Shown here: positions 16,361 through 58,612 of the stretch, in pieces
How positions within the stretch are numbered: the stretch's first letter is position 1
How the letters are laid out: every line of letters begins with the position of its first letter
Assembly (NCBI GenBank): GCA_017626395.1
Contig: JAGAIU010000011.1
Coordinates: 20,917 to 84,916, forward strand
Source: Clostridia bacterium
Lineage (GTDB): Bacteria > Bacillota > Clostridia > TANB77 > CAG-465
Length of the DNA: 64,000 bases
Direction of reading: 5' to 3'
The notes under the pieces: generated by a model
Seen by the model: only the letters and a program-made list of their open reading frames with translations
Databases searched by the model: none
Told to the model about the DNA's origin: nothing
Position numbers and translations under genes: made by a program

Positions 16361-16390
16361 GTAATTAATTACTTACATACTTTTTTTATT
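16355..16390 (+). terminator. perfect 24-bp palindrome ATGTAAGTAATTAATTACTTACAT plus T-run, overlapping the tube gene stop
   Basis: Palindrome at 16355..16378 followed by tttttttatt. Archaeal termination uses oligo-T tracts. Confidence 0.45.
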
Positions 16391-16465: not shown

Positions 16466-16978
16466 ATGAGCAAAGAAAAACAAGCTTTAGGAGCTCCAGA
16501 AGGAGAACACAAAATTACTGCAAACAACGCAGACGAATTATTAGCTGAATTACAAGCAGAATCTAAAAAAACTTCACAAAATAAAAAGAAGAAAAAAATC
16601 GAAGATTATAAAGTAGTTCAAGCAACAAGAGAAATGCTCATCAATAGGAAAGGTCAAATATTAAATGTACCAATTATTATTGATAATGAAGAAGCATGGA
16701 ACTTTAAAGTAAGAAGAATTTCTGAAGCAGAAAATTCAGACATTTTAGATAGGACTTTAGCAGTAAAAAACTTCAATGAAATGACTCCTGAAGAACTTGA
16801 AGCTTCAAATGATTATAACTTTAGATTATTAGCATTATCTGTTGTAGAACCAAAAATGTCAGAAGATGAATGGAAAGGTGTAGTAGACGCACCAATGGCA
16901 AGAAAACTTGTACAACAAATCAGTAAAGTAATTACTGACGTAAATGCTGATGGAATCTTTGACGACTTTCAAAGATAA
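16466..16978 (+). CDS. tail assembly chaperone (G-like, candidate)
   Basis: 170-aa acidic protein between tube and tape measure. Its 3' end is overlapped by a second small ORF in another frame. Confidence 0.45.
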   Translation: MSKEKQALGAPEGEHKITANNADELLAELQAESKKTSQNKKKKKIEDYKVVQATREMLINRKGQILNVPIIIDNEEAWNFKVRRISEAENSDILDRTLAVKNFNEMTPEELEASNDYNFRLLALSVVEPKMSEDEWKGVVDAPMARKLVQQISKVITDVNADGIFDDFQR

Positions 16979-43000: not shown

Positions 43001-45456
43001 TAAAAGATGGTGTTGTCGATATTTTATTTGATAATAATGTCATAGCAAATTATTATATGGCTGAAAACAATAAATATGTTGATTTTAATATTGGAAATGA
43101 AACCAAAGGATTACATAAAATTACAATTAAATATTATAATTCATCATTATTTAAAGACTTTGAAAAAACATATGATTTCAATATAGAAGCTAAATCTATT
43201 GATTTACGTATTAACACAAATAGTGAATATCAAAGCCAAAACATTGAAGCTATTAGTAGCGATATTATCAGTATTCAAACTGATTTTATACTTGATAATA
43301 ATTATACTCCAATGTCTGGAATTGTTAATTATTACATAGGTATTCCACAATATAAGATTAACAGCAACAATGAAGAGTATATCGATAGTTACTACGATAG
43401 ACTTATTGGTCAAGAAGAGTTTATTAATGAGACATCTAAAACACATGAATATATTCTTACTAATGATTTATTAGCATATACTGCTGATAATTTAGAAACT
43501 CATTATAGAATTAAAGCACATTTCATAGGCAACGATGAATATGAAGAATCCATAGAAACAGTTGATTTAAATATATATAAGCAAAATACACATATTATTT
43601 TGCCTTCAGATATGCAATTTGAATATCAGAGCAAAATGAATGTTAATATAGATATTATTAATAATAATAATGAAAATATAATTGGCGTAGAAAATGTTGA
43701 TATATATTTAGACGATGTTTTAGTATCATCATGTAAAACTATAGATGGAAAAGGTACTTTTACTTATCAGTTAAAGAATAAACATGTTATAGGTACATAT
43801 GACTTACGTGCAGTATTTAATGGTTCAGCTGTTAATAATCCATCTGAAACTACTGTTAGTTTTACAGTAACACCATTTACACCAATACTTAAAACAAAAG
43901 ATATAGACATGTATATACATGGTCAAAATACTTTAGATAATATTATTTATGATAAAAATGGAGTTATTATAGAAAGTGGTACCCTTAAATATGATACTCA
44001 TAATGGCGTTTTAGAATCCAAACCTAATGTGCCAGATGTAGTATGGTTTGATTCTGCTTTCAGAGATGATTGGGAATTAGATGTAGAATATATTAGTGAT
44101 GATTTAACAAAATACAATAACTTTCATGATACAATTCATGTTCATATGCATAAAAACCCTATTGAATTATCAATATATGCACCAGAACAAATATATCGTG
44201 GCGTACCTTTTGATGTAACCTTAAAAGCAAAAGCCCCAACTACAGCATATGATGTGAATTTAGACTTTTATAAAGAAGATGATGAAAGATATGTCATGCT
44301 TAATGGCTCTACTACTATATCTTTAATTTACCCTACTACATTGGAAGATAATTCTATTATTGAGGATTATATTAAAACAGATGGTAATGATATTTTTGAA
44401 GCTAATGAAATTTTATTAAAATTAAAAGTTAAAAACCAAGATAATATTACTGTAAATACTTCAATACCAGAATCAGCAACTAACACACATTCAATTCAAA
44501 AAGCAATTGATTTAGTAAGTGATTATGGTAGTATAGAAATAAGTACGCCAATAAGTAATCAAACAATTAATTTAACTAAAAATCTTACAATCAAAGGCGA
44601 TGCTACACTAACAAATTGTGTAATTAATAACGAAAGCAATAAAATACGTATTGATGGACTTACCTTTGAAAATGGAGAAGACACATGTATCAATAACAAT
44701 GCAAACATGACCATAATGAATTGTACATTTAAAAACAATCAAAATTCAGCAATAAAAACAAATGGAGAATTAAACGTTACACAATGTACATTTATAGGCA
44801 ATAATGCAGAAAAAGGTGCATGTATAAAAATCGGCAATAAAAATTATAAAACTAGCATTACATACTGTACTTTTAATGGAAATAATGCATCATTATATGG
44901 TGGATGTATTTATTCTGATAAAGTAAATGACATGGAAATATATAATAATGAATTCTCAAATAATAACAATGCTGGTGTTGGTGGTTCATCTATATGTGCT
45001 TATGGAGATATAGCAATTTCATTTAATACATTTTTCAATAATGCAGGAACTAGCGATATTTACTTATTACGTGGAACAACAGTATTAGAAAATAATTTAT
45101 TTGATGGTGCTATTACATCATTAAAAACACTTGATGGTAATGATATAGATTGTGATTTAAATTACTGGGGTTATAATGATATTAATGATATTTATAGTAA
45201 TAACCCTAATATTGAAATAAATAACTTTTTAATATCTGATTGCGAAATCATAGAAAAAGAAACTGGAAATTATATTATAGGTAGGATTAATAAATATATA
45301 AATCGTTTAGAAAGTGAAATTACTACTATAAATATATTAGAAAAACATTTCCCAGTTAAATTAAATGAAGAGCAATTTTATTTAAATGATGAGATAGCTA
45401 TTGAAATGAATGATACCTTTATGATAGGTCAAGATATAATTCATATTGAACATTGA
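34009..45456 (+). CDS. giant adhesin-like tail fibre/receptor-binding protein (3815 aa): Ig-like repeat arrays plus three parallel beta-helix modules
   Basis: Many about 90-aa repeats with the G-x-V-x-F-x-I(N/D)...A-x-Y-x-G...Y signature. Three right-handed beta-helix (PbH1-like) blocks rich in N-x-(A/S/G) rungs, each ending in an N-x-W(W/F)G-x-N-(S/T)-P-like motif (39769..39795, 40884..40910, 45161..45181). Follows the baseplate genes. Confidence 0.7.
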   Translation: MDYQELEDVYEFHRNMRKTPWLQLFPHWWDENDALLNAIGNEVERVKAQAVFVLLNAGIKPPVLLWQESINHETFNAHFNAKQLPKTVTIQAPLYETWGKITLTNNTEKDIDGLILKLDNSHGYAINQLITQEDILVINLTENKVLLNKKQIEPQTIGEGMPYFVTQQNNEVYDTNTPLHNEVIRLEISTNDTENIECDIDIDIELENAVFTNEQNIEITGLEAVPIDRVELYVKYDFSFNSKYNGWQKAWEKEYEKNTNVVYDRITTQIYTKEFYVDVYFKTLQYPYTVGFPCYKEATSKSPYHVNSRLDKWGEQLGLPRRLYKTEIPTNEYYRTFPIFYPFDIEQDYWYYKRLTSEYSWVESPVNDVDIKDTDGNNVIRLYSINPFTEDFAVHAKSRYPVDKEFINYNDYHPIAISQQTAKDIGVQTPYKDIINLLSDNNKKASITLNNYTDNNDVVYKRNKYYQKYDYITELGEGVYREGWKEPDSYKKDISYIKSSTHQSTELITYFDLSSLPQDVNIENIEFIVEAESTDNKKNKYATENTGVLIPNYNDSERFFIPLTADKSYQLKKQEITYSNDEVIDYLNNIKIADENIRQSFTIGEFQGKITDFVKIPFELEENSENVDDITDVWIYYNGNIRQASYKNDENGKYIYAYVPNLPIINTLTIICKSQTHKPFSYTINVNKYNQYSEDGTTIEYQYIQGPIVNDEHNEISDYVEWHTDNLRNLMQKQGIYFRHILKNTDEQSSTTVFLYNIQAKITYSPKKSNFKITTNITKKSDFPKIGTLNIKVENTGEKNFSSNVDIITPSNIVLSQNNIPIDLKVGQSLEKDIDITATYPIDDGFYDIVTICEDSIKKDSIEIFSDGLIATGVNLKSHHGKYNDTINLKAEVYAIDGGKINGTDSQVQFYINGFAVGNKVQVVDGLVEASISPKDYYFTGTGNLTLEAKFLGTTKYASSSNKSTIFISKDTTRIELISDNVAPYKGAFELKAKVEYYNGQGYVPVDAGTVEFYIDDEILSSNTTLVDGVFLSSINSIENPAGSYTLWAKYSGTESYVAVETSQPFEIIGGKSKISVFDIQAKPYSIIQLKAKVTDVNNKNIISGYVDFNIKNIHGEDVNFNTNITNIPVKNGLAISDDILLSVELESDFNTERYTIEAKYHNTLDSNNDELYGSSTAQGYIFVAKTDVILDYQSFYGTQYEPLGFYVRARDAETGAPVSNGKIAITLETEGVTIEEEVDDKGVARLIHNPLDFNAKDWSELEKFSFDVVDDDLHRYYNGTEFIADFDFFYNEQDGTLHYIKGKQNNENNEVSFIYNAETGKYDIIDTDTNDVIDDYDNEHLYITNGHLYARTTKDILRQYTIGTQNLKIEYISSGQYRSKTEYFDDGLQISQSNIDLDIHSYDLKYTDNDSIICYATKYTFTDDINTENINSGSVQFIVDNQVLDTVNIANGKAILKNSLLTNINGGQHLMCVKYANNNDTSYSYSLLKLTKMEPSLNILVDQEIKNKKSNVIVTLSASDNLNIPLNGLISLYLDDELIGTQYLNGNEMLPGIIDEYNIERLKEEMQLYSESERNIYIPGVIFSVLMPYDIDNHQLVAKYEGNEFLMPKTQTYQLSQIPAEIQINIKNNIYVARNEPCFIDVDVTYEDDIINEGKIVLTYGDEEIASSNVLDNKARLTWTPSSNNLLNTYVITYTGSTNYKDKHITANINVIDPLKTITIPNEQQHTLEDALMCLQSNGTIYITDDIILEKSIEITKDCSIIGENGVSIIKDIKELPIDFNILQNISTEQMQHMYKLDLSFEDINATDFTFIDNQLYIKGKTEMIPIYLAENGVFYSETPLSKILSDLNIIIKANVHFDNLTFKSNDSKILNNFVIYNESNCLITYSIIEKTAKLYNKGNMTAHRNLIYGLCQNVTDLDNNWWGSNTPPYNVNNHIIIDVKAVNTPAVISEEVEIEGEMIGANGQYYTIPQTDFSFTADSGYFSVDTGKVTNQKAHTTYLDAIKEGNVYFTVDNETVKCPVYDYERKTEVIIDDIDEVLINYQMPITAKVQSCADVYYEFDNNNNITESTKTINEGYIDFYIDNKQVGHEAVRKGKAQAKIFFKDAIYEENTKYELKAIYHSSDNYFDSQSSINITTITDEDVCFVSTSGSDNGNGNYSNPFLTLSKAIASNNKKIFLLEGDYYAENIIVTHNVSIKKYNGEVNFSNNTGNILFNIQPNVKLNISKINFIENQTTILFDNSGSLNIEQCIFYKNKSTLFKNNLTSTLFSVSLCAIVDNYLISSNINPNHYSYCWFGTNSPSDDFNDYIVMTTKVSKDKIYIGSLAHITAELKHYSHNGVQYNLDNPLPLRIAKFASDIGELKPVKDYTYHNSSTSLINTLKDNNTSQYIIKLKNRVYYDSEKINLLFNVTNVFDEPVESGILKVVITSENNKLENTIDIINGQATYNLPTLPIDEYNVSCTYIKEQIYNLNTTFVVKPLDIILQNIQLDEFSHLYYTHITGTAVDNLGQNINDEILDIKINDDNVGTLIINDGVINQQISYNLLKPGQYEIILTNEDRRTKYDTLHYTIPLIVKPQKTSIAFDYNTIEKDISNNLIIEIYDSEGREVQSGTVRVDFNNVIYEESISVNNGIAMLNNFNIDNSGQYPIAIYYTDNDGYYKDSVYINNNFGVGIYGVTFSLSDTDIITADIGKQFALNTTIKDVGNQLVNIGYVNVYIDDSLYVQNVGINNGNVSIISELPENISAGLHRLTLEYIGDDIYLDTYLDIYLKIGQIQTEIGIISTSGKSGQKSTINYTINSIYGNVNTGTLTAVFNEQIIGQSIVTDNITNQITFNTPFLPANNNYEITFKYHDSNNNYADSSITTKLIIERSNVIITPQKTWYYPQKDFNFILDVRDAEEKIIDNGKIDLYVNNVKEYEDISIVNGQAVIPMIFNKASTYTFDIVYQEDEYYLQTKKTIDFNVDSVVIDDINFKDELSSLPNRMFSTELIFTTLDDYIVKDGVVDILFDNNVIANYYMAENNKYVDFNIGNETKGLHKITIKYYNSSLFKDFEKTYDFNIEAKSIDLRINTNSEYQSQNIEAISSDIISIQTDFILDNNYTPMSGIVNYYIGIPQYKINSNNEEYIDSYYDRLIGQEEFINETSKTHEYILTNDLLAYTADNLETHYRIKAHFIGNDEYEESIETVDLNIYKQNTHIILPSDMQFEYQSKMNVNIDIINNNNENIIGVENVDIYLDDVLVSSCKTIDGKGTFTYQLKNKHVIGTYDLRAVFNGSAVNNPSETTVSFTVTPFTPILKTKDIDMYIHGQNTLDNIIYDKNGVIIESGTLKYDTHNGVLESKPNVPDVVWFDSAFRDDWELDVEYISDDLTKYNNFHDTIHVHMHKNPIELSIYAPEQIYRGVPFDVTLKAKAPTTAYDVNLDFYKEDDERYVMLNGSTTISLIYPTTLEDNSIIEDYIKTDGNDIFEANEILLKLKVKNQDNITVNTSIPESATNTHSIQKAIDLVSDYGSIEISTPISNQTINLTKNLTIKGDATLTNCVINNESNKIRIDGLTFENGEDTCINNNANMTIMNCTFKNNQNSAIKTNGELNVTQCTFIGNNAEKGACIKIGNKNYKTSITYCTFNGNNASLYGGCIYSDKVNDMEIYNNEFSNNNNAGVGGSSICAYGDIAISFNTFFNNAGTSDIYLLRGTTVLENNLFDGAITSLKTLDGNDIDCDLNYWGYNDINDIYSNNPNIEINNFLISDCEIIEKETGNYIIGRINKYINRLESEITTINILEKHFPVKLNEEQFYLNDEIAIEMNDTFMIGQDIIHIEH

Positions 45457-45564
45457 TATAATAACGAAGAAATAGACTCTTTATTTAATAATAAATCCGA
45501 TGTTAATCACAACCATGATGATTACGAAAACGATATCAATGATTTATTTAATAGAATTGGATAA
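45457..45564 (+). other. 35-codon in-frame extension after the TGA stop of the giant fibre gene, homologous to a module found twice more (no start codon of its own)
   Basis: In frame with 34009..45456. YNNEEIDSLFNNKSDVNHNHDDYENDINDLFNRIG then TAA at 45562..45564. No in-frame ATG/GTG/TTG. Confidence 0.3.
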
Positions 45565-45572
45565 GAGATATA

Positions 45573-46916
45573 ATGATAGATAATATTAGATTTTATGATT
45601 CTGAACATACAGTAAAAATTTCTATTGATAATGAGACTCAAGAAGAGCCTATTTACGAAATAGAAAAAATGGCATCTTATATAATATCAAATAATGCTAT
45701 TGATGTATCATTAAATGAAGATATCCATATTGATGCATCATTATGTTATGTTCCATATGATAAAACAATAGAAAAGGAAATAGACTCACCTAAAATAATA
45801 GATTTAGATGGAACAGTTACTATAACAATATCTGATGATAATAAAATTTTTTATCAAAATAATGTTCTCTTTAAAAGAGGTAATATAAAAGATGTTATAC
45901 CTAATAAGTTACCTTTAGGCGAATATAATGCTATTATTGAATTTGATGGCAATAAATATTTATCTTATACAAGATTAAATATTAATTTCAATGTTACTAA
46001 ACGAAAAACAAATTTTATATTTGATGAAAATAATTATTATGGATATCCAGACACATCTATTCAAATATCAGGTAAATTAAAAGATACATTAACAAATAAG
46101 CCAGTAAAAAATTGTATTATTAATTTTGACTATAATGGAGACACATATTCTACTACCACTAATAATATGGGAGAGGCTTTTATAAAGCTAAATATACCAG
46201 ATGTAGATATATCACATTGTTTTAATGATGAAAACGTTCCAAATATGTCTTATCCAATAACTTTATCTTTAGATAGTGAATCATATGAAATCTATAATAG
46301 TATGACAAATATCATCACTATGAAATTACCTACAGATGTAACAATTAATCAACAAACAGATATAATAAATAATAACGTTACTATTGGTGGATATGTAACA
46401 GCTCAATATCCTACTGAATCTAAAAATGCTCAATATGGAAAAGTAGTGGTATCTTTTCAAGATACAGATTATGTGAGTTCGCCAGTTAATATCGGTTCAG
46501 ATGGTAATTTTTCATTAAGTATAAATTTTGCTGATGTAAATGAATTTAACAATAAATCTAATATTACAGAATTAGTAATGTATCAAAAAGCTACAGAACA
46601 AATTACATCTATTAATTTAGAAGTTGAAGATACAACTATTCAAAAAGGGGAGCTAATAACTGCCATTGCAAATGTATTTTCACAAGAATCATCTGATTAT
46701 GTAAAAGATGGTATGGTAGTATTTATTTTAGAAAATAACAATCATAAAGAAATCTATAGATATGCTACACAAATAGATAGTATTGGACAATCAGTTTTTT
46801 TATTTAATACGTCTATGTCAGGTAAATATTATGTTAAAGCATATTATTATGGTATTTTTGGTTTTTTAAATTCAGAAAGTAAAACAATAGAAGTAGAGGT
46901 AGAAAATGTCATATAA
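45573..46916 (+). CDS. Ig-like repeat fibre-associated protein (447 aa)
   Basis: Big-like repeats (ITISDDNKIFYQNNVLF..., VKNCIINFDYNGDTYSTTTNNMGEAFIKLNIP). RBS and start at 45573. Confidence 0.5.
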   Translation: MIDNIRFYDSEHTVKISIDNETQEEPIYEIEKMASYIISNNAIDVSLNEDIHIDASLCYVPYDKTIEKEIDSPKIIDLDGTVTITISDDNKIFYQNNVLFKRGNIKDVIPNKLPLGEYNAIIEFDGNKYLSYTRLNINFNVTKRKTNFIFDENNYYGYPDTSIQISGKLKDTLTNKPVKNCIINFDYNGDTYSTTTNNMGEAFIKLNIPDVDISHCFNDENVPNMSYPITLSLDSESYEIYNSMTNIITMKLPTDVTINQQTDIINNNVTIGGYVTAQYPTESKNAQYGKVVVSFQDTDYVSSPVNIGSDGNFSLSINFADVNEFNNKSNITELVMYQKATEQITSINLEVEDTTIQKGELITAIANVFSQESSDYVKDGMVVFILENNNHKEIYRYATQIDSIGQSVFLFNTSMSGKYYVKAYYYGIFGFLNSESKTIEVEVENVI

Positions 46917-47511
46917 TACAGATTTAGGTAGAGTAAAAGGAGATAAGGGAACTACATATATTCCTAAAATTACTCTTGAAAATGGAAAACAATATATATC
47001 TTACGAATCAGATGATGGAACACCAATTCCTAGTGCTTTACAAAAAAAAGAATTTACTTCATTTGTATATAAACCATCATTAGATGAAAATGGTAACTTA
47101 TCTTTTGTATTAAGTAGTGATTTAACTGCTATTTTAAATTTAGGTAATATTAAAGGTCCAGTTGGAGAGTCTACAATTGGAATTAGAGTTGTCGACGCAG
47201 AACCAGAGTATAACAATTTATCTGATGCAGAAAAAACTTTAATTACAAATGGAAACAGTCATATTTATGTAATTGACACCGATGAAGCATATCTCGGTGC
47301 TGGTGTATTCAAAAAAGATGGTTCTTTTAAATATTTAGAGAGCAAGCTTCGTTTTGATAATTATTATCTTAAAACAGAAACTTATCATAAAGATGATGTA
47401 TATAATAAACAAGAAATAGCCACTCAATTAGGAAGTATTATCGAACAGCAAAATGCTATAACTGCTATGCTTGGAGATACTGATGCTATTATTATTCCAG
47501 ACGATGAATAG
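46906..47511 (+). CDS. hypothetical fibre-associated protein with collagen-like G-x-K-G start and C-terminal coiled coil
   Basis: MSYNTDLGRVKGDKGTTYIPKI...; C-terminal KQEIATQLGSIIEQQNAITAMLG. ATG overlaps the upstream gene end. Confidence 0.4.
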   Translation: MSYNTDLGRVKGDKGTTYIPKITLENGKQYISYESDDGTPIPSALQKKEFTSFVYKPSLDENGNLSFVLSSDLTAILNLGNIKGPVGESTIGIRVVDAEPEYNNLSDAEKTLITNGNSHIYVIDTDEAYLGAGVFKKDGSFKYLESKLRFDNYYLKTETYHKDDVYNKQEIATQLGSIIEQQNAITAMLGDTDAIIIPDDE

Positions 47512-47519
47512 GTGATTCA

Positions 47520-50159
47520 ATGGCTTCTTACAATGATGTATTAGAAAATTATCAATCAATTAATCAATCAATTAATAAATTACGTAAATACTTAATTAAT
47601 CAATTAAAAAAATGTTATATTACTGATATAGATGATTATAACTTTACAGAATTAATAGAAGCAGTTGGAACAATAAAAGCAACCGAATATCATAATAGTA
47701 ATAATAAGAAACCATTAAATGAGCCAAAAATTAATAGTAGTAATTTAACAACATATAATCAAACATTATATCAAAAAATACGTTATTATATGAGAACATT
47801 GGCTTATTTTTTAGTGCTCAAAGGAGTGTCAAATGCACAAGTTGCACAACAAAAAGATTTAAAAGGATTAATATCTTTAATTGACCAAATTAATGTCAGA
47901 GTGCCATCATCATTAATAATACAAAATATTACAGAAGATTATTATTATGGGTCATTAATTACATTAGATTATTCATTAACAGATATTAATGGTTATGATA
48001 TTCAAGAAGGTGAAATTATAATTGAATCTAATGGTATTGTTTATGATTCAATTAAAGTTGGAGAGCAGTTATCTTTCTTGCCAATAGCTATTAGTGATAA
48101 AGATAGCAATGGATATATACCAACTACTTTTACTTTTACATACCATGGGTCAGACAATTATGACGATTCATATCCTATTACAAGAGATATTATTATTAAA
48201 CCAAGTAAAGTTAATATAGAAATTTCACCTTTCAATGTAAATGAAAAAAGTAAATATTATCTACAAACAGACATAGGATATCAGACAGATGAATGGGAAA
48301 TATATATATGGGCTAGTAATTTTCAAGGTGGTTTAGAAGACGTACCACTTCAAATAACAATTAATAATGAAACATTTGAAGAGATTACTGACGAAGATGG
48401 TGGTTTTCTTTTAAAAACTACAATTAATAACGTAGGTATACAAAAAATTATAGTTGAAAGTATTTATGAAAATACTGACGATATTACAAACACAACAGCA
48501 GAATTTACTTTTAATATTAAGTATTACCCATTGTATCAAGCTAAAGACTCTTATAACGATTATTTAGGAAAAGCATCATATACATATGAGCTTACTATTA
48601 TTAATGAGGATACAGGCAAAAATAACGATTTATTAATAACCAATAAAGATGTATCAATATCATTAGATGGGCAAATTATAGGCACAACACGTATAATAAA
48701 TAACAAAGCTATATATACAATTCCAACACCTTATATTACACAAGGAGAACATATTTTATATTGGAATAATGAAGGCAATCAAGCACAAACTTTTATTAAT
48801 TTATATTCCAATTTTATATTACCTGATACTGATAAATTTTACATTGATAATACTCCAGATGTAATATATGCTCCATTACAGACAGAATACTATAATACAA
48901 GTGATTGGAATCCAATAGCTGGAAAAGAAGTCAATGCTTCTATTAAATATAATAAAATTATTAACGTAGAACATGATGACGATACAGATACAGACATTGT
49001 TGAAAAAGAAACTACCAATTATAATGTTACTTTGACTACAGATAGCAATGGTGTACTAACTGGATTAAAAGATTATGTAGATATTGGTGAATATGAAGTT
49101 GTTTTGACATCTAATTCAGATTCTTTATCTGAAACTATTACATATAAGTATGAAGAAACAGAACCATATGTAATAACTACAAATCAATATTCTAAAAGAA
49201 ATCCTTTTGAACTTGAAATACAAGTTGAAATATATGATAATGATTTTTTAAATGTACAATCTTATCTTACCAATAATACAAATACCATAGAAGGCATAAA
49301 GAGAATTGAAAACGATAATATTTTAACATTTTATTATGGTCAAAATATAACAGAAGGTCAATATACTCATTATTTAAAATTAAATGATAAAATTATCAAT
49401 GATGATTTAAATTTTAGTTTTATATCAAATCCTCTAGCATTATTAACAAATGTCGTAACTATTGGGACAAACCATATATCATTAAGTTGTACAGACGATA
49501 GTATTGAAGCAATTACTTTAGAAAGTGATTATATAATTGCTAATGAAATTACCAAAGAAAATGGCGTATTTGATATTGATGCTACATTTTTAAAAGTTGG
49601 TGAAAATACTTTCACTATACATACAGAAGATGAAGAATTTGAATTTTCTATTACTGTAGAAAAAAGTGACCTTTTACCAAGTATTGTAGTACAAAAAGTT
49701 ACACCTAATGGACAAACACAAATAATTTATGATGAAGATACTGGCGAAGAGCAAACTATCGTAATGGATTTAATTGAAGAAGTTGATGAAATTGATTCAG
49801 AAGATTTAAACAATATTGATGTTTTATTATTATTTGAAAACGAATTAATTGAAGATATTGATGTTACATTCTTCTTTGATGATGTAAGCGTTGAAACATA
49901 TACTATAACAGCCGAAGAAGATGAAAATAAAGTATTTAAAATACCTAATACAAATACAGGAAATCATACATTATCTTTTATTTATACTGCAAGTGTTGAT
50001 GACAGCTATAATTCTTTTAGTGTAGAAAAAGAAATTTCTATTATTACAATTTCATACTCTAAAGAAGAATTTAATAATATGCTATTAGAATATGCAGATA
50101 CCAATCATACTCATGCACAATATGAAGAAGCCATCAATGATATATGGGAGAGATTATAA
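47520..50159 (+). CDS. Ig-like repeat fibre protein (879 aa) ending in the conserved EE-x-N...HxH...YE...IND module
   Basis: Repeats of the Y-x-G-S-D-N-Y-D-D-S / G-x-Y-E-V-V-L-T-S type. C-terminus KEEFNNMLLEYADTNHTHAQYEEAINDIWERL. Confidence 0.5.
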   Translation: MASYNDVLENYQSINQSINKLRKYLINQLKKCYITDIDDYNFTELIEAVGTIKATEYHNSNNKKPLNEPKINSSNLTTYNQTLYQKIRYYMRTLAYFLVLKGVSNAQVAQQKDLKGLISLIDQINVRVPSSLIIQNITEDYYYGSLITLDYSLTDINGYDIQEGEIIIESNGIVYDSIKVGEQLSFLPIAISDKDSNGYIPTTFTFTYHGSDNYDDSYPITRDIIIKPSKVNIEISPFNVNEKSKYYLQTDIGYQTDEWEIYIWASNFQGGLEDVPLQITINNETFEEITDEDGGFLLKTTINNVGIQKIIVESIYENTDDITNTTAEFTFNIKYYPLYQAKDSYNDYLGKASYTYELTIINEDTGKNNDLLITNKDVSISLDGQIIGTTRIINNKAIYTIPTPYITQGEHILYWNNEGNQAQTFINLYSNFILPDTDKFYIDNTPDVIYAPLQTEYYNTSDWNPIAGKEVNASIKYNKIINVEHDDDTDTDIVEKETTNYNVTLTTDSNGVLTGLKDYVDIGEYEVVLTSNSDSLSETITYKYEETEPYVITTNQYSKRNPFELEIQVEIYDNDFLNVQSYLTNNTNTIEGIKRIENDNILTFYYGQNITEGQYTHYLKLNDKIINDDLNFSFISNPLALLTNVVTIGTNHISLSCTDDSIEAITLESDYIIANEITKENGVFDIDATFLKVGENTFTIHTEDEEFEFSITVEKSDLLPSIVVQKVTPNGQTQIIYDEDTGEEQTIVMDLIEEVDEIDSEDLNNIDVLLLFENELIEDIDVTFFFDDVSVETYTITAEEDENKVFKIPNTNTGNHTLSFIYTASVDDSYNSFSVEKEISIITISYSKEEFNNMLLEYADTNHTHAQYEEAINDIWERL

Positions 50160-50302
50160 TGACAGAATACTATACTAAAGAAGAAATCAACGAATTATTA
50201 GAAGGGAAAAGTAATATTGACCATAGACATACCATTTATGAACAGCAAATTCAAGAAATCAATGATTTACTTGATGATTTAGAAGCAGAAGTACTTGGTT
50301 AA
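50159..50302 (+). CDS. small ORF (47 aa) that is a stand-alone copy of the fibre C-terminal module
   Basis: taATG overlap with the upstream stop. MTEYYTKEEINELLEGKSNIDHRHTIYEQQIQEINDLLDDLEAEVLG. Below the 60-aa track threshold, found by hand. Confidence 0.4.
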   Translation: MTEYYTKEEINELLEGKSNIDHRHTIYEQQIQEINDLLDDLEAEVLG

Positions 50303-50455
50303 TTATATAGATTAGATAAGAAAGATTACAATATTAATATTTTTGTTTAAAAGGTAATAAAAATGTTGTTTGAGTTTAAAATTTATGATAGAGAAATAAT
50401 CAAATCAAATAGCATTGGAAAATGAACTGTTAGATTTAGAGGAGGATTTATTATC

Positions 50456-52306
50456 ATGAGTTTTAGGGAATCTTTTTATCAAACAAAACAATTATTAGTA
50501 AACAGACTTAATGATTTTGGTATTTTAAGTGCTAATATGAATATGGGGTGGACAACATTATTAACAATCAAACAGAATACTAGAATAACAATTGATGTTC
50601 CATTAAATTTAATATATAGTGATGAATTTTTAATTACAGGAACATTAGAGACATCAACATATTCAAGATTAAATGGTAAAACAGTTAAATTAAAAGTGGG
50701 AGATACAGTTGTTGATACTACAACAACAAATGTTAATGGTGAATATTCATTTACACACACTCCTGTTTCAACAGGTACTCATTCATTTCAGGTTATTTTT
50801 GAAGAAACAAATGTTCATGCAGCTTCAGAAAGTTCAATTGTTACTCGTGAAGTTGGAAAAGAAACAAGTGTTATGAATTTAGATGCTGTATCAACACAAC
50901 ATTATGGTGATACTTTAATAACTGGTGGACAATTGCTAGATAATGATGGACAATATATAGCAGATGCTTCAGTAGTATATAAATTAAATGGAACAACAGT
51001 AAGCACTTTAACAACAGATTCGTATGGTACTTTTTCTGTAACAAGAACAATTAATAGTTTTGCAACCACAAAAATGACATTTGAATATGCTGGTGATTCT
51101 AATTACACAAACACTAGTGCAAACGTAGATGTTAATGTATATCAACCACAATTAAGCTTAACAAGTAATAAAAATATTTTATCACATGCCGATAATGATA
51201 ATGCCACATTGACTGTACAAGTACAAGATAATGCACCTGTTCCACAAAATTTAGCTATTTCAAATCATTTAGTTACATTATTAGGTTATGATGATTATTC
51301 AGGTGAAACAGCATCAGATTTTACTGATACAAATAATATAGCATCCATTTCTGATGATAATCAAACTATTGTAATGTACAGTAATAGTTCTACTAGTGAC
51401 TCTAATATTGTACATAATACTACATTTGGGTCAAAACCTATGCTAATGAGTTTTAATGTTGACTCTGCAACAATTTCAGATGCAGGATATATTGCTGTAT
51501 TTAATGATGCTGGAACTTCAATGATTAGTTATTTAGAGTTAAGTACAGGGCAATATAACATATATAGTTATAATGATACTGATGCTGTTGTTGTGACAAA
51601 AAATGGGTCAACATTAGGTACTATAAAATTAAATGGACCTTTATCATATAAAATAGGTTTCTATCTGTCAGAAACAAGGATTGTTTTAAGCGATGTACAA
51701 GTTCATGAAATTATAGGTTCAGGATACACAAACTCTTCTGGTGCATGTACATTAACTTATGATTCTCAAGGTATTGGTGATATTGTTTTAACTGCTCAAG
51801 CGAATATTAACAGTAGTTTATCATCAGAAATATGCATTATAGAAGATTGTTTCAATGCACTTCTTACTGAACAATCCATATCAAATAGTAGTGGTACTAA
51901 AATCTCATCTGTTGGATTGGATACCATCTATAATATTCGTAATGAGAGTTTTAGTCTTGAATTCACTCATACTGGGAATGGTGTACTGAACATTGGTAGA
52001 AAATCAAGTTGGAGCAGTAGTACTGCAAACTATCGTGCCACAATCGGTTATGCCGATGGCAAACATTACTATGCGACAAGGACAACCAGTTCCGATGAAT
52101 CTTATGGAGATACTGCCTCCACCAGTACCGAATACCAGTATAAACTAACAAGAAACGGTTCAACACTCAATTTCTATGTTGATGATGCCCTAATCGGTAC
52201 TAAATCGTTCAGTACATTTGCCAGTTATGATGATTGGAGTATCTACTCAATTATATGGGGAAGTGGAACATCAACCATTAGCAATATTAAATTAAAACCA
52301 TTATAA
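50456..52306 (+). CDS. Ig-like repeat fibre protein with GC-elevated C-terminal ConA/LamG-like lectin domain
   Basis: RBS gaggagga. Big-like repeats (GKTVKLKVGDTVVDTTTTNVNGEYSFTHTPVSTGTHSFQV...). C-terminal SFSLEFTHTGNGVLNIG...YQYKLTRNGSTLNFYVDDALIGTKSFS is jelly-roll lectin-like. Codon usage shifts to GCC/ACC/CCG from about 51950. Confidence 0.5.
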   Translation: MSFRESFYQTKQLLVNRLNDFGILSANMNMGWTTLLTIKQNTRITIDVPLNLIYSDEFLITGTLETSTYSRLNGKTVKLKVGDTVVDTTTTNVNGEYSFTHTPVSTGTHSFQVIFEETNVHAASESSIVTREVGKETSVMNLDAVSTQHYGDTLITGGQLLDNDGQYIADASVVYKLNGTTVSTLTTDSYGTFSVTRTINSFATTKMTFEYAGDSNYTNTSANVDVNVYQPQLSLTSNKNILSHADNDNATLTVQVQDNAPVPQNLAISNHLVTLLGYDDYSGETASDFTDTNNIASISDDNQTIVMYSNSSTSDSNIVHNTTFGSKPMLMSFNVDSATISDAGYIAVFNDAGTSMISYLELSTGQYNIYSYNDTDAVVVTKNGSTLGTIKLNGPLSYKIGFYLSETRIVLSDVQVHEIIGSGYTNSSGACTLTYDSQGIGDIVLTAQANINSSLSSEICIIEDCFNALLTEQSISNSSGTKISSVGLDTIYNIRNESFSLEFTHTGNGVLNIGRKSSWSSSTANYRATIGYADGKHYYATRTTSSDESYGDTASTSTEYQYKLTRNGSTLNFYVDDALIGTKSFSTFASYDDWSIYSIIWGSGTSTISNIKLKPL

Positions 52307-52312
52307 TGGTTT
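52295..52312 (+). repeat. perfect 18-bp palindrome AAACCATTATAATGGTTT spanning the stop codon of the fibre gene
   Basis: Read directly. Stop TAA at 52304..52306 lies in the centre. Confidence 0.6.
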
Positions 52313-52404
52313 AATCTTGATGTCTTTTGAAGTTCGTATGTTTTGACTTGAAACATGCATAATAATATATTATATTACTTTTTTTTATTTTTTTATTACT
52401 TCTA

Positions 52405-52467
52405 TCAAAAACTTTATATAATTAAATAAATAAACTCTTACATAATCATATATAGGAGGATGAAAAA
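52405..52467 (+). promoter_or_regulatory. candidate archaeal promoter (A-rich BRE plus TTTATATA box) and RBS for the integrase
   Basis: caaaaactTTATATAattaaa at 52405..52425. aggagga at 52454..52460, 7 nt before the ATG at 52468. Preceded by T-runs and a weak hairpin atgttt-tgacttg-aaacat (52338..52356). Confidence 0.35.
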
Positions 52468-53547
52468 ATGCTTACAATATATGAATTAAGAGATTATTTA
52501 GAAGAATTTATTGAAGAAAAAAAAGAAGTAAAAAATATCACAAATGCTACGATGAAAAAGCAAACCATTAATATAAAAAATTTTATAAAATGGCTAGAAA
52601 AAGAAAACATACAACAAATAGACAACAGAAATATAAAGAGATGCTTAAGAAAATATCGTAGCTACTGCTTAAATGAAAGGAATAATAAAAGAACCACAGT
52701 CAAGACATACCTGCTAAATGTGATAGATTTTTTAAATTACGAAGAAATCAGAATAATAACAGGACATGAAAAAATACACATCAAAGAAATAATAGAAGTC
52801 AAAAGCGAAAATCCTGATACAGCAAGAAAACGTATTGAAAAAATATCACTAACAAGAAAACAAACTGATTTCTTTTTAGACACAGTAAAAAGAACTGGCA
52901 ACATTAAAAACTATGCAATATGCAGAACTTTTATTGAAACTGGCATGAGATTAAAAGAACTTGTACTATTAGATAAAACAGATATAAAAGTACCATTAAA
53001 TAAACAAGGACTTTATATACTACCAAACGATAAATATGAAATAATTGAAGTACATTTAAGAGCAGAAAACACAAAAGGACAATACAAAAGCAGAACCACA
53101 TTTATAACATATGACACACTTGTTGCTATCAATCAAATGATAATGTCACGCATAATCGACTACCAAAAAAAGAAATATCAACGTGATATAATTAAAGTCA
53201 GAAAAAAAAGAGTAGAAAACGAAATAAATCGTCAAGAACTATTTACAGCAGAAGGAGATAGAAGATTCACCAGACGTGGAGTACAAAGTTTAATTAAGCA
53301 ACAAACAAAAAACTGCGATACAAGAATAGAAGAAGAAAATATAAAATGCCCAATCAATTACTTTAAAAATGTTAGCACACATATATTAAGACACACAGCA
53401 TTATCTCGTTACGCTGAAATATTAACAGTAGCAGAAGTGCAAACAATAGCTGGACATGCTAGTAGTTCTACAACAGATAGATACATACATATTGACCATA
53501 GTAAAATAAAAGAAAAAATTAGAATGAGTATGGAGGAAGATAAATGA
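52468..53547 (+). CDS. int: tyrosine recombinase / phage integrase
   Basis: Arg I in ETGMRLKEL. H-x-x-R in HILRHTALSRYAE. Catalytic Tyr context GHASSSTTDRYIHI. N-terminal SAM-like domain. 359 aa. Confidence 0.85.
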   Translation: MLTIYELRDYLEEFIEEKKEVKNITNATMKKQTINIKNFIKWLEKENIQQIDNRNIKRCLRKYRSYCLNERNNKRTTVKTYLLNVIDFLNYEEIRIITGHEKIHIKEIIEVKSENPDTARKRIEKISLTRKQTDFFLDTVKRTGNIKNYAICRTFIETGMRLKELVLLDKTDIKVPLNKQGLYILPNDKYEIIEVHLRAENTKGQYKSRTTFITYDTLVAINQMIMSRIIDYQKKKYQRDIIKVRKKRVENEINRQELFTAEGDRRFTRRGVQSLIKQQTKNCDTRIEEENIKCPINYFKNVSTHILRHTALSRYAEILTVAEVQTIAGHASSSTTDRYIHIDHSKIKEKIRMSMEEDK

Positions 53548-53903
53548 TATATACAATTAATGGAGAAGAAGTAGACTATATACATATAGATAAAGTCTCA
53601 AACAGAATTGATATTCAATATTATGAAAAATTTGATGTCGTAACAGCTCATACAAACAGAATAGTTAATAAACTAAAAGATAAACAAATCAATGCTATAG
53701 TATGTAAAAACTTATATCGTGGCTATATAGGATTCTTTTTAGAACATATCGAAGATTACATCGGTGTTATTCACATACTTGAAATGCCAATGAACGCATG
53801 CCAAGTAGACAGAGACAATAACTTCTTACTCTTACGCATAGATGAAATACCAAAATACCACAACAAAAGCTTTGAAGAAATATTAGAAAAAGCAGAGGAA
53901 TAA
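53544..53903 (+). CDS. hypothetical protein (119 aa) downstream of the integrase
   Basis: ATGA overlap with the int stop. No motif. Confidence 0.4.
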   Translation: MIYTINGEEVDYIHIDKVSNRIDIQYYEKFDVVTAHTNRIVNKLKDKQINAIVCKNLYRGYIGFFLEHIEDYIGVIHILEMPMNACQVDRDNNFLLLRIDEIPKYHNKSFEEILEKAEE

Positions 53904-53904
53904 A

Positions 53905-54681
53905 ATGAATAAAAAATTAATTATTTTATTAATTATTTTCGCAATTGCTTCATTAAATACTGTAAGTGCTGGAAACAATACAACAGTAGTTGATAATCCT
54001 ATAGTGGTTGTAGAAGATGGTCCTACAGTAGAAGCATTAGAAAGTGGTGATTCTAACATATCCTTTAGTAATGGATACAAAGGATACTGTATTGAATGGG
54101 GAGAACATTCAGCAGAAGCTGGAGATAAATTTTACATTCATGAAGACGTAGATAACAATATAAAAGTATTCTTTACATACTTCTACAAAGAATCACAAAA
54201 AGACACCATAGCAACACAACATATGATTTGGAAATTTACAGATAACAAAGAGTTCAGCAGATTTAATCAAACATTATATAATCAAATTATAAATGTATCA
54301 AAAAATATAAAAGTACCTAATGAAGGTACATTAAAAATAGACAATACAACAGAAATGGTATTCAGTTTCAAAAATTTTGTCTCACCAATATCACAACATC
54401 AAAATTATTTCGGCTATAAGATTTTTTTCAGAAATATTACCCATCAAATAAATGAATCTTCGACCAATAATATTACACTTATATTACCACAACTATATAA
54501 TTATGAAAGCAACTTTACATTTAATGAAGTGATTATTAATAAAAGTAATAATTCAACTCATACATCTACATCAAGTAGTGAAAAAATATTATTCTCTAAA
54601 CATGTTACTGGAGTCAACCTCCCATGGTATTTCATTTGCGTCATATTCATGATATTCGGGATTATAATAATAAGAACGTAA
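53905..54681 (+). CDS. secreted, C-terminally membrane-anchored protein (possible lysogenic-conversion/exclusion protein)
   Basis: Signal-peptide-like MNKKLIILLIIFAIASLNTVSAGNNTT. N-glycosylation sequons (NxS/T) are frequent. C-terminal LPWYFICVIFMIFGIIIIRT anchor. Confidence 0.45.
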   Translation: MNKKLIILLIIFAIASLNTVSAGNNTTVVDNPIVVVEDGPTVEALESGDSNISFSNGYKGYCIEWGEHSAEAGDKFYIHEDVDNNIKVFFTYFYKESQKDTIATQHMIWKFTDNKEFSRFNQTLYNQIINVSKNIKVPNEGTLKIDNTTEMVFSFKNFVSPISQHQNYFGYKIFFRNITHQINESSTNNITLILPQLYNYESNFTFNEVIINKSNNSTHTSTSSSEKILFSKHVTGVNLPWYFICVIFMIFGIIIIRT

Positions 54682-55002
54682 CTCATCAGCTGTTGTTGTT
54701 GGTGTATAAGCTATAATTTTTTGTTTTTTATTTTTTATTTTTAAACGCTTATCTAAAAAATTTTTTGCTCTCCAGAAGTCTGGGTCATAAAAAATACTTA
54801 ATGGATTATCAGGATGTAAAGATATTAACTTCCAAACCCATTCATTCGGATTTAAACCTTTAGGTTTTGTATAAGTTGCTGGATGAATAATTCTTATTCT
54901 ATAATTCATATCAATTTTCTTCTTCACCATTCCAAACCCACGCATCACATACTTTAACCTTACCTGCATCACATGACATATAAGGATGAGAACAATTATC
55001 AC
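54589..55002 (-). CDS. hypothetical protein; likely real start at internal Met (MVKKK, about 54930)
   Basis: The first 24 codons overlap the upstream gene and are hydrophobic junk-like. Basic and W-rich protein. Last gene of the leftward accessory operon. Convergent 3' overlap with 53905..54681. Confidence 0.35.
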   Translation of the reverse strand: MIIVLILICHVMQVRLKYVMRGFGMVKKKIDMNYRIRIIHPATYTKPKGLNPNEWVWKLISLHPDNPLSIFYDPDFWRAKNFLDKRLKIKNKKQKIIAYTPTTTADELRSYYYNPEYHEYDANEIPWEVDSSNMFRE

Positions 55003-55540: not shown

Positions 55541-55713
55541 GCCTCCTGTAATAATGTTATAGTTTGTATAGTAAAACTAAAAAATATCATTCCAAATAAA
55601 AAAGAAGGTAAATTTAAAGGATATTGTGTATTAATAACACCTGCAAATATTAATATAATTGGTGCTATAACAGCACAATATATTATTAAAATAAATATAG
55701 GTTTCCATTTCAT
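55531..55713 (-). CDS. small membrane protein (60 aa)
   Basis: Two hydrophobic helices (IFILIIYCAVIAPIILIFAGV; FLFGMIFFSFTIQTITLL). Overlapping start/stop with its neighbours. Confidence 0.35.
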   Translation of the reverse strand: MKWKPIFILIIYCAVIAPIILIFAGVINTQYPLNLPSFLFGMIFFSFTIQTITLLQEAWK

Positions 55714-56141
55714 AATAATCTTAAATCTCCAGTAATATTATCTATATCTTCCCTAGTAAAAGGACCAATACCTAAACAAGTAATTGAGCCATTAGTTACT
55801 TCAGTACGTCCTTCATCAATTACTAAAGCATTAGGAATCTTTTGTTCATCAGCTGCTCTTTTTAACTCTAATAAATCTGAAGTTGTCTCAACTTGTAAAA
55901 CAATTTTAGGATAAGAATTATCCAACCAACCAGCAGCTACAGACTCATTAGCTTCTAATAAAGATAATACTGATGCATGAGCTACTTGTGCAGCAATCTT
56001 ACCAACTGACATTCCTAAACTTTTATTAACCACTATAACTTGTTTGAAGTCTCCATCTTTGAAATTTTTATTAAATTTAATTGCTCTTAAAAAACCATTT
56101 GCTTTTAAAACATCTATTTTAACATTGTTTGTATCTTTCAT
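55710..56141 (-). CDS. pth2: peptidyl-tRNA hydrolase, archaeal/eukaryotic type (Pth2)
   Basis: GMSVGKIAAQVAHASV and DEGRTEVTNGSITCLGIGPFTREDIDNITGDLRLL align closely with the PTRH2/Pth2 family (KMGKGKVAAQCSHAAV ... [35 protein letters not shown]). 143 aa. Confidence 0.85.
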   Translation of the reverse strand: MKDTNNVKIDVLKANGFLRAIKFNKNFKDGDFKQVIVVNKSLGMSVGKIAAQVAHASVLSLLEANESVAAGWLDNSYPKIVLQVETTSDLLELKRAADEQKIPNALVIDEGRTEVTNGSITCLGIGPFTREDIDNITGDLRLL

Positions 56142-56145
56142 AATA

Positions 56146-56988
56146 TCACTCTTCCATTTCTTCTAAAATTTGACGAAATCTAGTATTATAAATTTCTATA
56201 TCTGGTAACTCTTGCTTTTTACCTTGAGCAGTTTTAGCAACCTGTAAAAAAGTATGTATCCAATTACTTAAGTTCATAATTGCTCGCTCACTTAAGCGAT
56301 TAAGTTTGCAATTACTTTTGTAATAATCTATGCAATCACGCATATCTTGTAATAATTGGTCGGAAAATTGTAACCCATCAATTTCAAGGTCTTTGAATTT
56401 ATCTAAAAGCTCATCGATTTTAATTGGAGCATTGATGTCGTCGAACTCATCAATTAATAACCAAGCAAGTATTTGACGAATACAGTAGCAATATGTTTTG
56501 ACAACACGTGGGGAGAAATCATCTGTACGTGTGCCTTTAATATACTTCATGTAGTTGTTATAAGTCATACTACCATATGCATGTTTTAATGTGGTTAAAT
56601 CAAAATCAGGCAATCCTTTTAAGAAATTACAATCACCACGATAAATCATAGTGTGTAATATGTGCTCTCGTAAGTTAGGGTTACTTTTTCTGTATTGAGA
56701 AAGAACTTTAGTAATATCCCATCCAGAAAAATCTAAATCATATAAATACTCTTTTTCTTCTAAATCATGATTATCAATAACATCTCTCATTGTATCTATA
56801 CGTAAGTAATCTTTTACAGGTCTTATATAGAAAAAACGTATATCATAATCAGAATCTTCATTAGAAAAGCCCCAGCCACGAGAACCAGTTTCAACAGCAT
56901 ATAAAACTTTTACATTAAATTCCTCTTCAATGTTATCAAGCTCTTGATTTACATAGTCGTAAATATCTTTATCAATACCATTAATCAT
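56146..56988 (-). CDS. Pol-beta-superfamily nucleotidyltransferase with C-terminal helical domain (predicted NTase)
   Basis: N-terminal LYAVETGSRGWGFSNEDSDYDIRF matches h-G-S-x(9-13)-D-h-D-h. A further acidic strand YDLDFSG. 280 aa. Lies immediately upstream (in operon order) of pth2. Confidence 0.6.
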   Translation of the reverse strand: MINGIDKDIYDYVNQELDNIEEEFNVKVLYAVETGSRGWGFSNEDSDYDIRFFYIRPVKDYLRIDTMRDVIDNHDLEEKEYLYDLDFSGWDITKVLSQYRKSNPNLREHILHTMIYRGDCNFLKGLPDFDLTTLKHAYGSMTYNNYMKYIKGTRTDDFSPRVVKTYCYCIRQILAWLLIDEFDDINAPIKIDELLDKFKDLEIDGLQFSDQLLQDMRDCIDYYKSNCKLNRLSERAIMNLSNWIHTFLQVAKTAQGKKQELPDIEIYNTRFRQILEEMEE

Positions 56989-58500: not shown

Positions 58501-58612
58501 TTAAAATCACCATATAGTATTCGATATAATTAATCATATAATTAATTATGCAATTAATCATTTAAATACTTAACTACTTTAGAAATTACAGTATTAATTT
58601 AAGGTGATAGTC
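58501..58612. promoter_or_regulatory. divergent promoter/operator region with three contiguous 12-bp direct repeats (ATAATTAATCAT / ATAATTAATTAT / GCAATTAATCAT at 58526..58561)
   Basis: Read directly. Lies between the leftward accessory operon and the rightward endolysin gene. RBS aaggtga at 58601..58607. Confidence 0.4.

Follow-up and report, generated by a model that had tools for sequence, protein, structure and literature searches.

A foreign lectin-fold fibre tip and a likely decayed tip-inversion switch in a putative methanogen virus

Why does a tail-fibre-like gene change its base composition abruptly near its end, and why does it end in a palindrome? The gene lies in a 64-kb window, which is the whole stretch analysed here (64,000 nucleotides of contig JAGAIU010000011.1, assembly GCA_017626395.1, labelled Clostridia bacterium). 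The best overall explanation is likely a foreign lectin tip combined with a decayed tip-inversion switch in a methanogen virus. The composition anomaly and the palindrome are fully explained, and no exotic mechanism is needed. We are highly confident that the tip was acquired horizontally and that the palindrome is a relic. That inversion occurs would be a moderately probable claim, made from anatomy and precedent. An earlier note on this DNA had proposed a swapped receptor-binding domain or a target of a diversity-generating retroelement (DGR).

50456..52306, plus strand: tail-fibre-like receptor-binding protein gene, an open reading frame (ORF) of 616 aa with a constant body and an exchangeable tip.
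50456..51812, plus strand: constant body of the fibre, residues 1 to ~452, with a DNA match to loci L001 and L002, whose tips are unrelated.
51818..52315, plus strand: tip cassette, very probably acquired horizontally (coding part 51830..52303, 158 codons), with a ConA-like lectin fold and elevated G+C.

The composition shift at the end of the gene is a shift at synonymous positions. G+C was 0.395 to 0.42 in 200-nt windows across 51900..52199, 0.25 to 0.33 upstream, and ~0.19 to 0.27 downstream. The top 300-nt window of the 64 kb was 51972..52271 (G+C 0.41, z 3.15), and the region ranked second in G+C at window sizes of 150, 200, and 360 nt. G+C at third codon positions (GC3) was 0.03 to 0.15 along the first 480 codons of the ORF and 0.28 to 0.38 after them. 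At 0.34, codons 511 to 610 ranked first in GC3 among the 100-codon windows of all ORFs tested (mean 0.127, standard deviation 0.044). The last ~158 codons were above every other gene stretch of the window in third-position G+C. The tip used GCC for 5 of 8 alanines (body, 2 of 23), ACC for 5 of 19 threonines (1 of 62), ATC for 5 of 15 isoleucines (1 of 29), and TTC for 4 of 6 phenylalanines (1 of 15). Sliding G+C, GC3, and codon counts confirm the abrupt switch that had been seen by eye. The foreign end that the earlier note described also stood, but not its start at 51950, in the last ~120 codons; the tip begins at ~51818 to 51830 and spans 158 codons. Elsewhere, in both the 150- and the 200-nt scan, the G+C of the window peaked highest at 29410..29609 (0.445 to 0.47), and this peak equals the tip peak in strength. 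It lies inside ORF 28141..29889, which has no Pfam match.

Related loci (labelled L0xx) and related proteins (labelled P00xx) gave a mosaic map with boundaries located to within ~20 nt. L001 comes from sample SRR14517524, L002 from ERZ1029114, and L014 from ERZ28613010. The stretch 50408..51833/51850 was 97 to 98% identical in DNA to L001 and L002, which bear different tips. The downstream flank, 52333..52616, was 96 to 97% identical to the same two loci. The tip cassette, 51818..52315, was 87.8% identical to the cassette of L003 to L008, which are a different virus with a G+C of 0.38 to 0.40. The closest whole-protein relatives, P0002 and P0003, were 95 to 96% identical across the first 75% only and then had unrelated C-termini. 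L011, an IMG/VR contig with a G+C of ~0.33, carries the same tip at 95.6% DNA identity, ending an open frame of >1800 aa. P0012 (1057 aa) has the same tip family as the expressed end of yet another body. The family also occurs as a silent reverse cassette in L003 to L008, L015, and L016. Used as a query, the tip gave sequences of 55 to 91% identity, stand-alone "ORFs" of ~163 aa. Nearly all family members terminate in ...K-x-K-P-L.

The composition of the cassette was constant across backbones. It had a G+C of 0.35 to 0.37 and a GC3 of 0.25 to 0.32 in backbones of 0.29, 0.33, and 0.39. It looks G+C-rich in a 29% genome and slightly G+C-poor in a 39% genome. A composition kept wherever the cassette sits is the signature of recent spread between lineages, and recent acquisition from another methanogen-virus lineage accounts for the foreign codon usage of the tip. 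The horizontally swapped receptor-binding tip proposed before is thus borne out. Body and flank match one set of relatives (96 to 98%), and the tip matches tips in unrelated backbones (88 to 96%). IMG/VR searches with alignments as queries gave one locus each, the representative-genome scan gave one relative, and the JGI metagenome scan gave two. A phage database megablast of 45000..55000 returned zero matches, as did an IMG/VR search with the fibre body alone as the query.

The tip has a ConA-like lectin/glucanase fold, a two-sheet beta-sandwich, and it matches solved members. The ConA/LamG-like jelly-roll that had been assigned to the C-terminus is thereby confirmed as a lectin-like fold. 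The ORF as a whole had weak Ig-like Pfam matches to Big_3_5 and CarboxypepD_reg. It is the final gene of the tail module, after baseplate J at 32282..33409. Its position closing the module and the fold of its tip lead us to read it as a receptor-binding tail fibre. The tip may bind a host surface glycan. The middle domain of the fibre (residues ~270 to 440) was also mosaic, with at least two unrelated versions in relatives that share the N-terminus (P0004 versus P0007, P0006, P0008, and P0010). This makes the fibre a three-module protein with two exchange points.

58604..59491, plus strand: pseudomurein endoisopeptidase with pseudomurein-binding repeats (Peptidase_C71, 55.1 bits, cutoff 22; PMBR, 46.4 bits, cutoff 24.9).

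The endoisopeptidase gene points to a virus of Methanobacteriales and not of Clostridia. Judged by its genes, the element appears to be a tailed virus or provirus of a pseudomurein-walled methanogen (Methanobacteriales). In other loci, the genes beside silent cassettes encode endolysins of the C39 or PMBR type. C39-type and PMBR-containing endolysins are the two kinds on record for gut Methanobrevibacter viruses, and pseudomurein endoisopeptidases are known from MSTV1-like viruses (PMC11375127). The sole representative-genome match was weak and came from a Methanosphaera stadtmanae metagenome-assembled genome (MAG). The NCBI label "Clostridia bacterium" MAG on the identical fibre protein is probably a binning error.

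52295..52312: 18-bp perfect palindrome AAACCATTATAATGGTTT, a tail-to-tail cassette junction.
52301..52332, minus strand: stub of a second (reverse) tip cassette, reading ...K-D-I-K-I-K-P-L-stop, out of frame with the right core site described below.

The meaning of the palindrome came from the relatives. L001 and L002 have a minus-strand open frame (174 and 168 codons, respectively) that overlaps the fibre stop by six bases. The same six-base, tail-to-tail overlap was found in L003 to L008, L014, L016, and L019. These reverse frames are tip cassettes. They start with the body-tip linker peptide (…V-S-K-T-Y-x-I-E-D-C…) and finish with K-P-L-stop. The palindrome AAACCATTATAATGGTTT arises because two endings AAA CCA TTA TAA (K-P-L-stop) share the six bases TTATAA. 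A constant body with a start-less, inverted alternative C-terminal cassette was present in L001, L002, L003, L014, and L019; a full reverse cassette at the palindrome junction itself was present in the first four of these. The silent cassettes are intact frames of ~160 to 200 codons that have no start or ribosome-binding site. The window has only a 24-nt stub. Its minus strand encodes eight codons (…K-D-I-K-I-K-P-L-stop), and the frame is lost beyond them. Alignment with L001, L002, and L003 showed that the second cassette has lost its interior of ~500 nt. The palindrome in the window is therefore a relic of a convergent cassette pair.

Other loci bear on how cassettes are paired. In L016 (JGI 3300031760, 1152 nt), two silent-type cassettes stand tail to tail as an orphan pair, and both have a complete dyad site and a non-coding leader rich in T. 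The silent cassette of L019 (5875..6393; sister sample) is 99% identical to one of the two, with homology that runs as far as the outer edge of the core site. This suggests more than two cassettes per virus, or cassette re-pairing. L013, a 73-kb contig, breaks off 31 nt past the fibre stop, and the palindrome is apparently the end of L030. These contig ends hint at population heterogeneity and are not evidence of it.

The perfect 18-bp palindrome was found at 52295..52312, as the earlier note had it, and it includes the fibre stop codon (52304..52306). It is not statistically unusual by itself. The window held 3 perfect palindromes of at least 18 nt (0.96 expected), and 60% of dinucleotide shuffles had at least one; approximately one 18-bp palindrome is expected per shuffle of this A+T-rich window. 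Its meaning lies in its recurrence at the same place in relatives, not in rarity. The exact 18-mer was present in 15 IMG/VR contigs, and ~11 of the 15 were cassette junctions, that is, ...K-x-K-P-L frames meeting on both strands or one such frame plus an opposite stub. Cassette endings other than KPL (KAL, RRL, DLL, and RSL) occur and yield no perfect palindrome. Cross-lineage homology always stops at the palindrome. The intact 18 nt were kept without a full reverse cassette in the window, L037 (5900..5960), L011 (5470..5510), and L027 (6690..6720). In L037 they were kept although the right site and the recombinase are also gone. A separate 26-bp perfect palindrome, TATGTAAGTAATTAATTACTTACATA, lies in the tail region at 16354..16379, covering the end of ORF 15755..16360 and part of the gap before ORF 16466..16978. 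Its length was reached in only 2 of 200 shuffles.

51813..51835, plus strand: left core site at the body-tip junction, GTAGTTTA / TCATCAG / AAATATGC, with the same 8-7-8 layout as the cassette starts of relatives.
52336..52358, minus strand: right core site, the "hairpin" of the earlier note; in the cassette direction it reads GCATGTTT / CAAGTCA / AAACATAC.
52379..52397, plus strand: T-runs T8-A-T7-A-TT, a candidate archaeal-type transcription stop of the fibre gene, read from sequence.

The cassette starts examined share an 8-7-8 layout when aligned: two 8-nt arms, the right one AAA(C/T)ATAC, on either side of a 7-nt spacer. Tyrosine recombinases (lambda Int, Cre, Xer, and Rci) use matching spacers flanked by inverted arms. 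Spacers were identical between the two sites of a locus in 5 of the 8 loci compared: L001 (GTATCCA), L003 (TCATCAG), L016 and L019 (both TTGCAAG), and L031 (CTACGGA). The matched spacers vary from locus to locus. The cassette pair is bracketed by inverted repeats, 30 nt long in L001 and 21 nt in L002 (both 90% identical) and 22 nt long in L003 (82%). The silent-side left arm is never translated, yet in several lineages 7 to 8 of its 8 positions are reverse-complementary to the right arm. It reads GTATGTTT in L003, GCATGTTT in L001 and L002, and GTATGGTT in L016 and L019, with similar arms in L020 and L031. This symmetry (CGTATG mirrors CATACG) accounts for the conserved ATG three codons before the E/K-T-Y linker motif in most silent cassettes. 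The silent cassette of L014 has no ATG. The tyrosine codon of the site was TAC in most sites examined; TAC makes up 18.5% of the tyrosine codons in the genes of the window.

In the window, the right core site was the sole match to GTATGTTT-N7-AAACATAC at up to one mismatch. It shares its arms with L001 and L002, whereas 6 of the 7 spacer positions differ from those two loci. The two spacers of the window are unmatched (left TCATCAG, right CAAGTCA) and differ throughout. Homologies to L001/L002 and to L003 overlap at the left core site, and comparison with L003 and L020 shows that its spacer and right arm arrived with the foreign tip. The right core site forms a 9-pair hairpin in an RNA fold. 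A hairpin/terminator had been placed at 52338..52400. The dyad (52336..52358) and the T-runs (52379..52397) are there. The terminator role was not upheld, and no bacterial intrinsic terminator was scored at the palindrome or at the hairpin. The stem of the palindrome is A+T-rich and weak. The palindrome and the hairpin are a convergent-cassette junction and a residual recombination site, and they are neither a terminator nor a DGR feature. Archaeal transcription terminates at oligo-T tracts, the form that the T-runs have.

52468..53547, plus strand: Xer-like tyrosine recombinase of 359 aa, a candidate invertase (Pfam Phage_integrase, 43.6 bits, cutoff 27.1), with an N-terminal SAM-like domain.
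53544..53903, plus strand: small ORF of 119 aa that overlaps the recombinase stop; it is kept with the recombinase in L014, is missing in L037, and has no family match.

The archaeal XerA model is covered over its whole length by residues 13 to 349 of the recombinase, at a score below the cutoff of that model. This alignment indicates a two-domain Xer-like enzyme that has no room for an arm-binding domain. Its putative catalytic tyrosine lies in a C-terminal TTDRYIH motif. A sequence search of the recombinase against solved structures gave no match. None of the Pfam-scanned ORFs of the window matched a resolvase/invertase family; the neighbouring enzyme is a tyrosine recombinase. A homologue adjoins the cassettes in L001, where only its start is visible, and in L014 (67% identity). 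L027 has a distant recombinase after a stub and a right-site remnant. In L035 to L038, which are of the same virus group, the second cassette, right site, recombinase, and companion ORF are all absent. The next gene, 53905..54681 (plus strand, 258 aa), has a weak match to the thioester domain (TED) at an E value of 7e-4, below the cutoff. It is present in L014 and absent in L037.

The anatomy of the relatives suggests the following switch. In two-cassette relatives, one tip is fused to the fibre body, and the other sits start-less on the opposite strand, tail to tail with it. The identical K-P-L-stop ends of the cassettes overlap by six bases and so produce the palindrome. The two sites of a locus stand inverted relative to each other, one at each cassette start. 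A Xer-like tyrosine recombinase, encoded immediately downstream in this lineage, would flip the ~1-kb segment. The flip would join the other tip to the fibre body, and receptor specificity would change. The enzyme encoded at 52468..53547 may catalyse the inversion. The window would be a decayed version, with one complete foreign tip, a 24-nt out-of-frame stub, a mismatched right site, and an apparently intact recombinase gene. Because its spacers are mismatched and there is only a stub to bring in, the switch of the window is most likely locked. The fibre is probably locked on its present tip. A locked switch agrees with the identical fibre protein on 16 contigs from several samples. ERZ28019245 and SRR12529208 are samples that contain the variant of the window. 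Fourteen of the 16 contigs are of 50 to 200 kb, and all 16 assemble straight through the locus.

Several points weigh against the inversion switch. The predicted inverted products of L001, L002, and L003 (six proteins, exact look-up) were absent from ~15 billion proteins. In the L003 lineage, 17 of 17 contigs share one orientation. No reciprocal active/silent cassette pair was present among the proteins and loci collected, and a homologue search with the L019 fibre gave no same body with a different tip. The search for opposite orientations drew on sparse sampling, very diverse cassettes, and assembled sequences only. No recombinase gene adjoins the silent cassette in L003, L019, L020, L023/L033, or L025, where an endolysin is found instead, and the integrase of L003 is 8 kb away from the cassette locus. 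Spacers have one mismatch within L002 and at least two within L020 and L025. The repeats partly encode a conserved linker peptide, and selection on recombinants would also place boundaries at domain edges. The recombinase could simply be the integrase of the virus. The host assignment draws on one endolysin family and the weak Methanosphaera MAG match. Ordinary modular mosaicism would account for much of this. Co-infecting viruses would swap tips where short stretches are conserved (the linker codons and the K-P-L-stop end), through homologous or illegitimate recombination. Reverse cassettes would be passive leftovers or a reservoir, there would be no programmed site-specific inversion, and the recombinase would be just an integrase. 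The unrecovered opposite orientations and the lineages that have no recombinase beside the silent cassette fit this account. So does the homology that stops exactly at the linker site and the palindrome, which microhomology plus selection could produce, and the window itself is a recombinant with decayed sites. Other evidence speaks against it, however. In several lineages, the left arm of the silent-side sites is conserved in mirror symmetry with the right arm although it is untranslated, and spacers co-vary within loci. Silent cassettes keep frames of ~160 to 200 codons that have no start or ribosome-binding site. Recombinase and second cassette are present or absent together within one virus group, and the unit boundaries of L016 versus L019 are the outer edge of a non-coding arm. 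On this evidence we consider mosaicism without inversion rather unlikely.

Could the convergent small ORFs be independent, free lectin-like genes, with overlapping stops as the palindrome and one gene lost in the window? Most of them begin with ATG at a fixed position, and gene callers annotate proteins of 163 to 182 aa. Yet this ATG belongs to the dyad site (CGTATG mirrors CATACG), and the L014 copy has none. No Shine-Dalgarno-like sequence precedes the small ORFs, whereas the genes of the window have GGAGG. Each small ORF starts exactly with the tip-body linker of the fibre, and the same cassette family is fused to fibre bodies elsewhere. Independent genes are thus very improbable. The palindrome may instead have a function of its own, as a 3' mRNA hairpin, a protein-binding site, or a cassette-exchange site, which is compatible with the inversion switch. 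It is intact in variants that have no reverse cassette (the window, L011, L027, and L037), cross-lineage homology breaks there, and its 6-bp arms and 6-bp centre resemble the form of a recombinase core. We regard such a function as improbable, since chance alone would place an 18-bp palindrome about once per window of this composition, the stem is weak and A+T-rich with no terminator scored, and the KAL, RRL, DLL, and RSL endings give no perfect palindrome. The DGR alternative takes the tip as a variable region, places reverse transcriptase and template outside the window, and takes the hairpin for a DGR-associated stem-loop. The tip is indeed a C-terminal, compositionally distinct ligand-binding domain with dyads after it, and the window is 64 kb of a 126-147-kb contig. 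The fold, however, is ConA-like, and the usual fold of DGR targets is the C-type lectin. Pfam-scanned ORFs of at least 80 aa in the window included no reverse transcriptase (overlapping ORFs and the 84-aa ORF 13299..13553 excepted), in agreement with the earlier note. Searched against the window by blastn (word size 7), 51801..52420 matched itself and otherwise gave noise, with no second or template copy. Sixteen contigs carry one and the same protein, and the full fibre protein had no near-identical variant among the sequences recovered. The tip differed from L003, L011, and L015 at 28, 11, and 19 synonymous and 18, 8, and 15 non-synonymous codons, respectively. These differences were dispersed over all 158 codons and were mainly transitions, more often synonymous, and the adenine-specific variation that a DGR would leave in the tips of relatives was not seen. 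Cassette architecture accounts for the dyads. With no such enzyme in the scanned ORFs, no template in the 64 kb, another fold, and an ordinary substitution pattern, a DGR target is extremely unlikely.

The inversion switch has counterparts among known systems, and the closest described layouts are the Rin shufflon and the Int1 system of phiCh1/phiH1. Systems long known share parts of the plan. The Mu G and P1 C segments (Gin and Cin) and Min of p15B use serine invertases with an enhancer and Fis, and they have a chaperone gene per variable part. As here, the constant fibre part lies outside the invertible segment, the alternative C-termini are opposed, and the recombinase gene is beside the segment; the enzyme here is a tyrosine recombinase, and there is no chaperone gene. 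The family follows the Mu G/P1 C logic with a tyrosine enzyme, and the window copy is a decayed example. In the R64 shufflon (Rci, PilV adhesin tips), the sites have a 7-bp spacer and one well-conserved arm. A tyrosine recombinase swaps C-terminal adhesin segments there, and the fibre-side sites here conserve mainly the spacer and the right arm. R64 is a plasmid pilus system with multiple segments, and the likeness drawn here is one of layout. A DGR is alike in that the varying part is a C-terminal ligand-binding domain; it differs in that reverse transcriptase, template repeat, and adenine-directed changes were not found here and the fold is another.

In the Rin shufflon of Bifidobacterium prophages, inversions were observed in sequence data, and host-range switching is the proposed role (PMC6109161). 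Its receptor-binding gene has a constant N-terminus; behind it come variable C-terminal cassettes and, last, a XerD-like recombinase that has no arm-binding domain (PMC6109161). A short crossover site precedes every cassette, as here. Rin has several cassettes and asymmetric 11-bp sites, whereas this family has two cassettes tail to tail, with overlapping stops and 8-7-8 dyads. The host here is archaeal, inversion was not observed, and the window copy is decayed. In the haloarchaeal myoviruses phiCh1 and phiH1, the XerD-type tyrosine recombinase Int1 and inverted repeats switch two C-terminal variants of the tail fibre (PMC6210493). These are likewise archaeal tailed viruses with a tyrosine recombinase and alternative fibre C-termini. 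Their recombinase lies inside the invertible segment, between two fibre genes, and repeat clusters lie within the genes. Here the recombinase is outside, the cassettes abut, and there is one site per cassette; the comparison is one of layout. A systematic survey of programmed inversions explicitly excluded archaea and viruses (PMC9881135). We found no description of such a switch in methanogen viruses in the literature searched, which excluded the 2023 compendium (doi 10.1038/s41564-023-01485-w). No invertible fibre cassette is mentioned in the MSTV1 paper.

Other genes of the window surround this locus. The tail module contains a terminase (4100..5695), a portal (5695..7053), and baseplate J, along with two giant genes on the plus strand: 17239..25737, for a tape-measure-like protein of 2832 aa, and 34009..45456, for an Ig-repeat protein of 3815 aa. 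The latter encodes repeated Big_3_5 Ig-like domains, and its size is unusual for a tail component. Downstream, 55710..56988 (minus strand) encodes a peptidyl-tRNA hydrolase (PTH2) and an RlaP-type nucleotidyltransferase in a viral early/accessory block. Both genes are conserved in L014 and L037. The RlaP gene contains the second-highest GC3 stretch of the window (0.33), and it may for this reason also be a recent acquisition.

The kept palindromes, the homology breaks, and the L016/L019 pair allow, and do not demonstrate, that cassettes move as site-bounded modules. Among Methanobacteriales viruses of the gut and rumen, tips could be self-contained mobile modules, in which a lectin domain is combined with a dyad core site and a half-palindrome. 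Such modules could be flipped within a genome, and captured between genomes that differ in base composition, by Xer-like recombinases, with the K-P-L-stop palindrome as a second exchange point. Such an integron-like economy of receptor-binding domains is a speculative and unlikely extension.

Only one virus of gut or rumen methanogens has been cultured (PMC11375127), and very little is known of how these viruses recognize their hosts. The locus marks the part of the virion that would set specificity, a lectin-fold tip. Tips pass between virus lineages of differing base composition. The relatives suggest that many such viruses may carry a spare tip and a simple two-site switch. The sites and the recombinase of the locus are candidates for a host-range switch of archaeal viruses, with relevance for methanogen ecology and for attempts at targeting methanogens.

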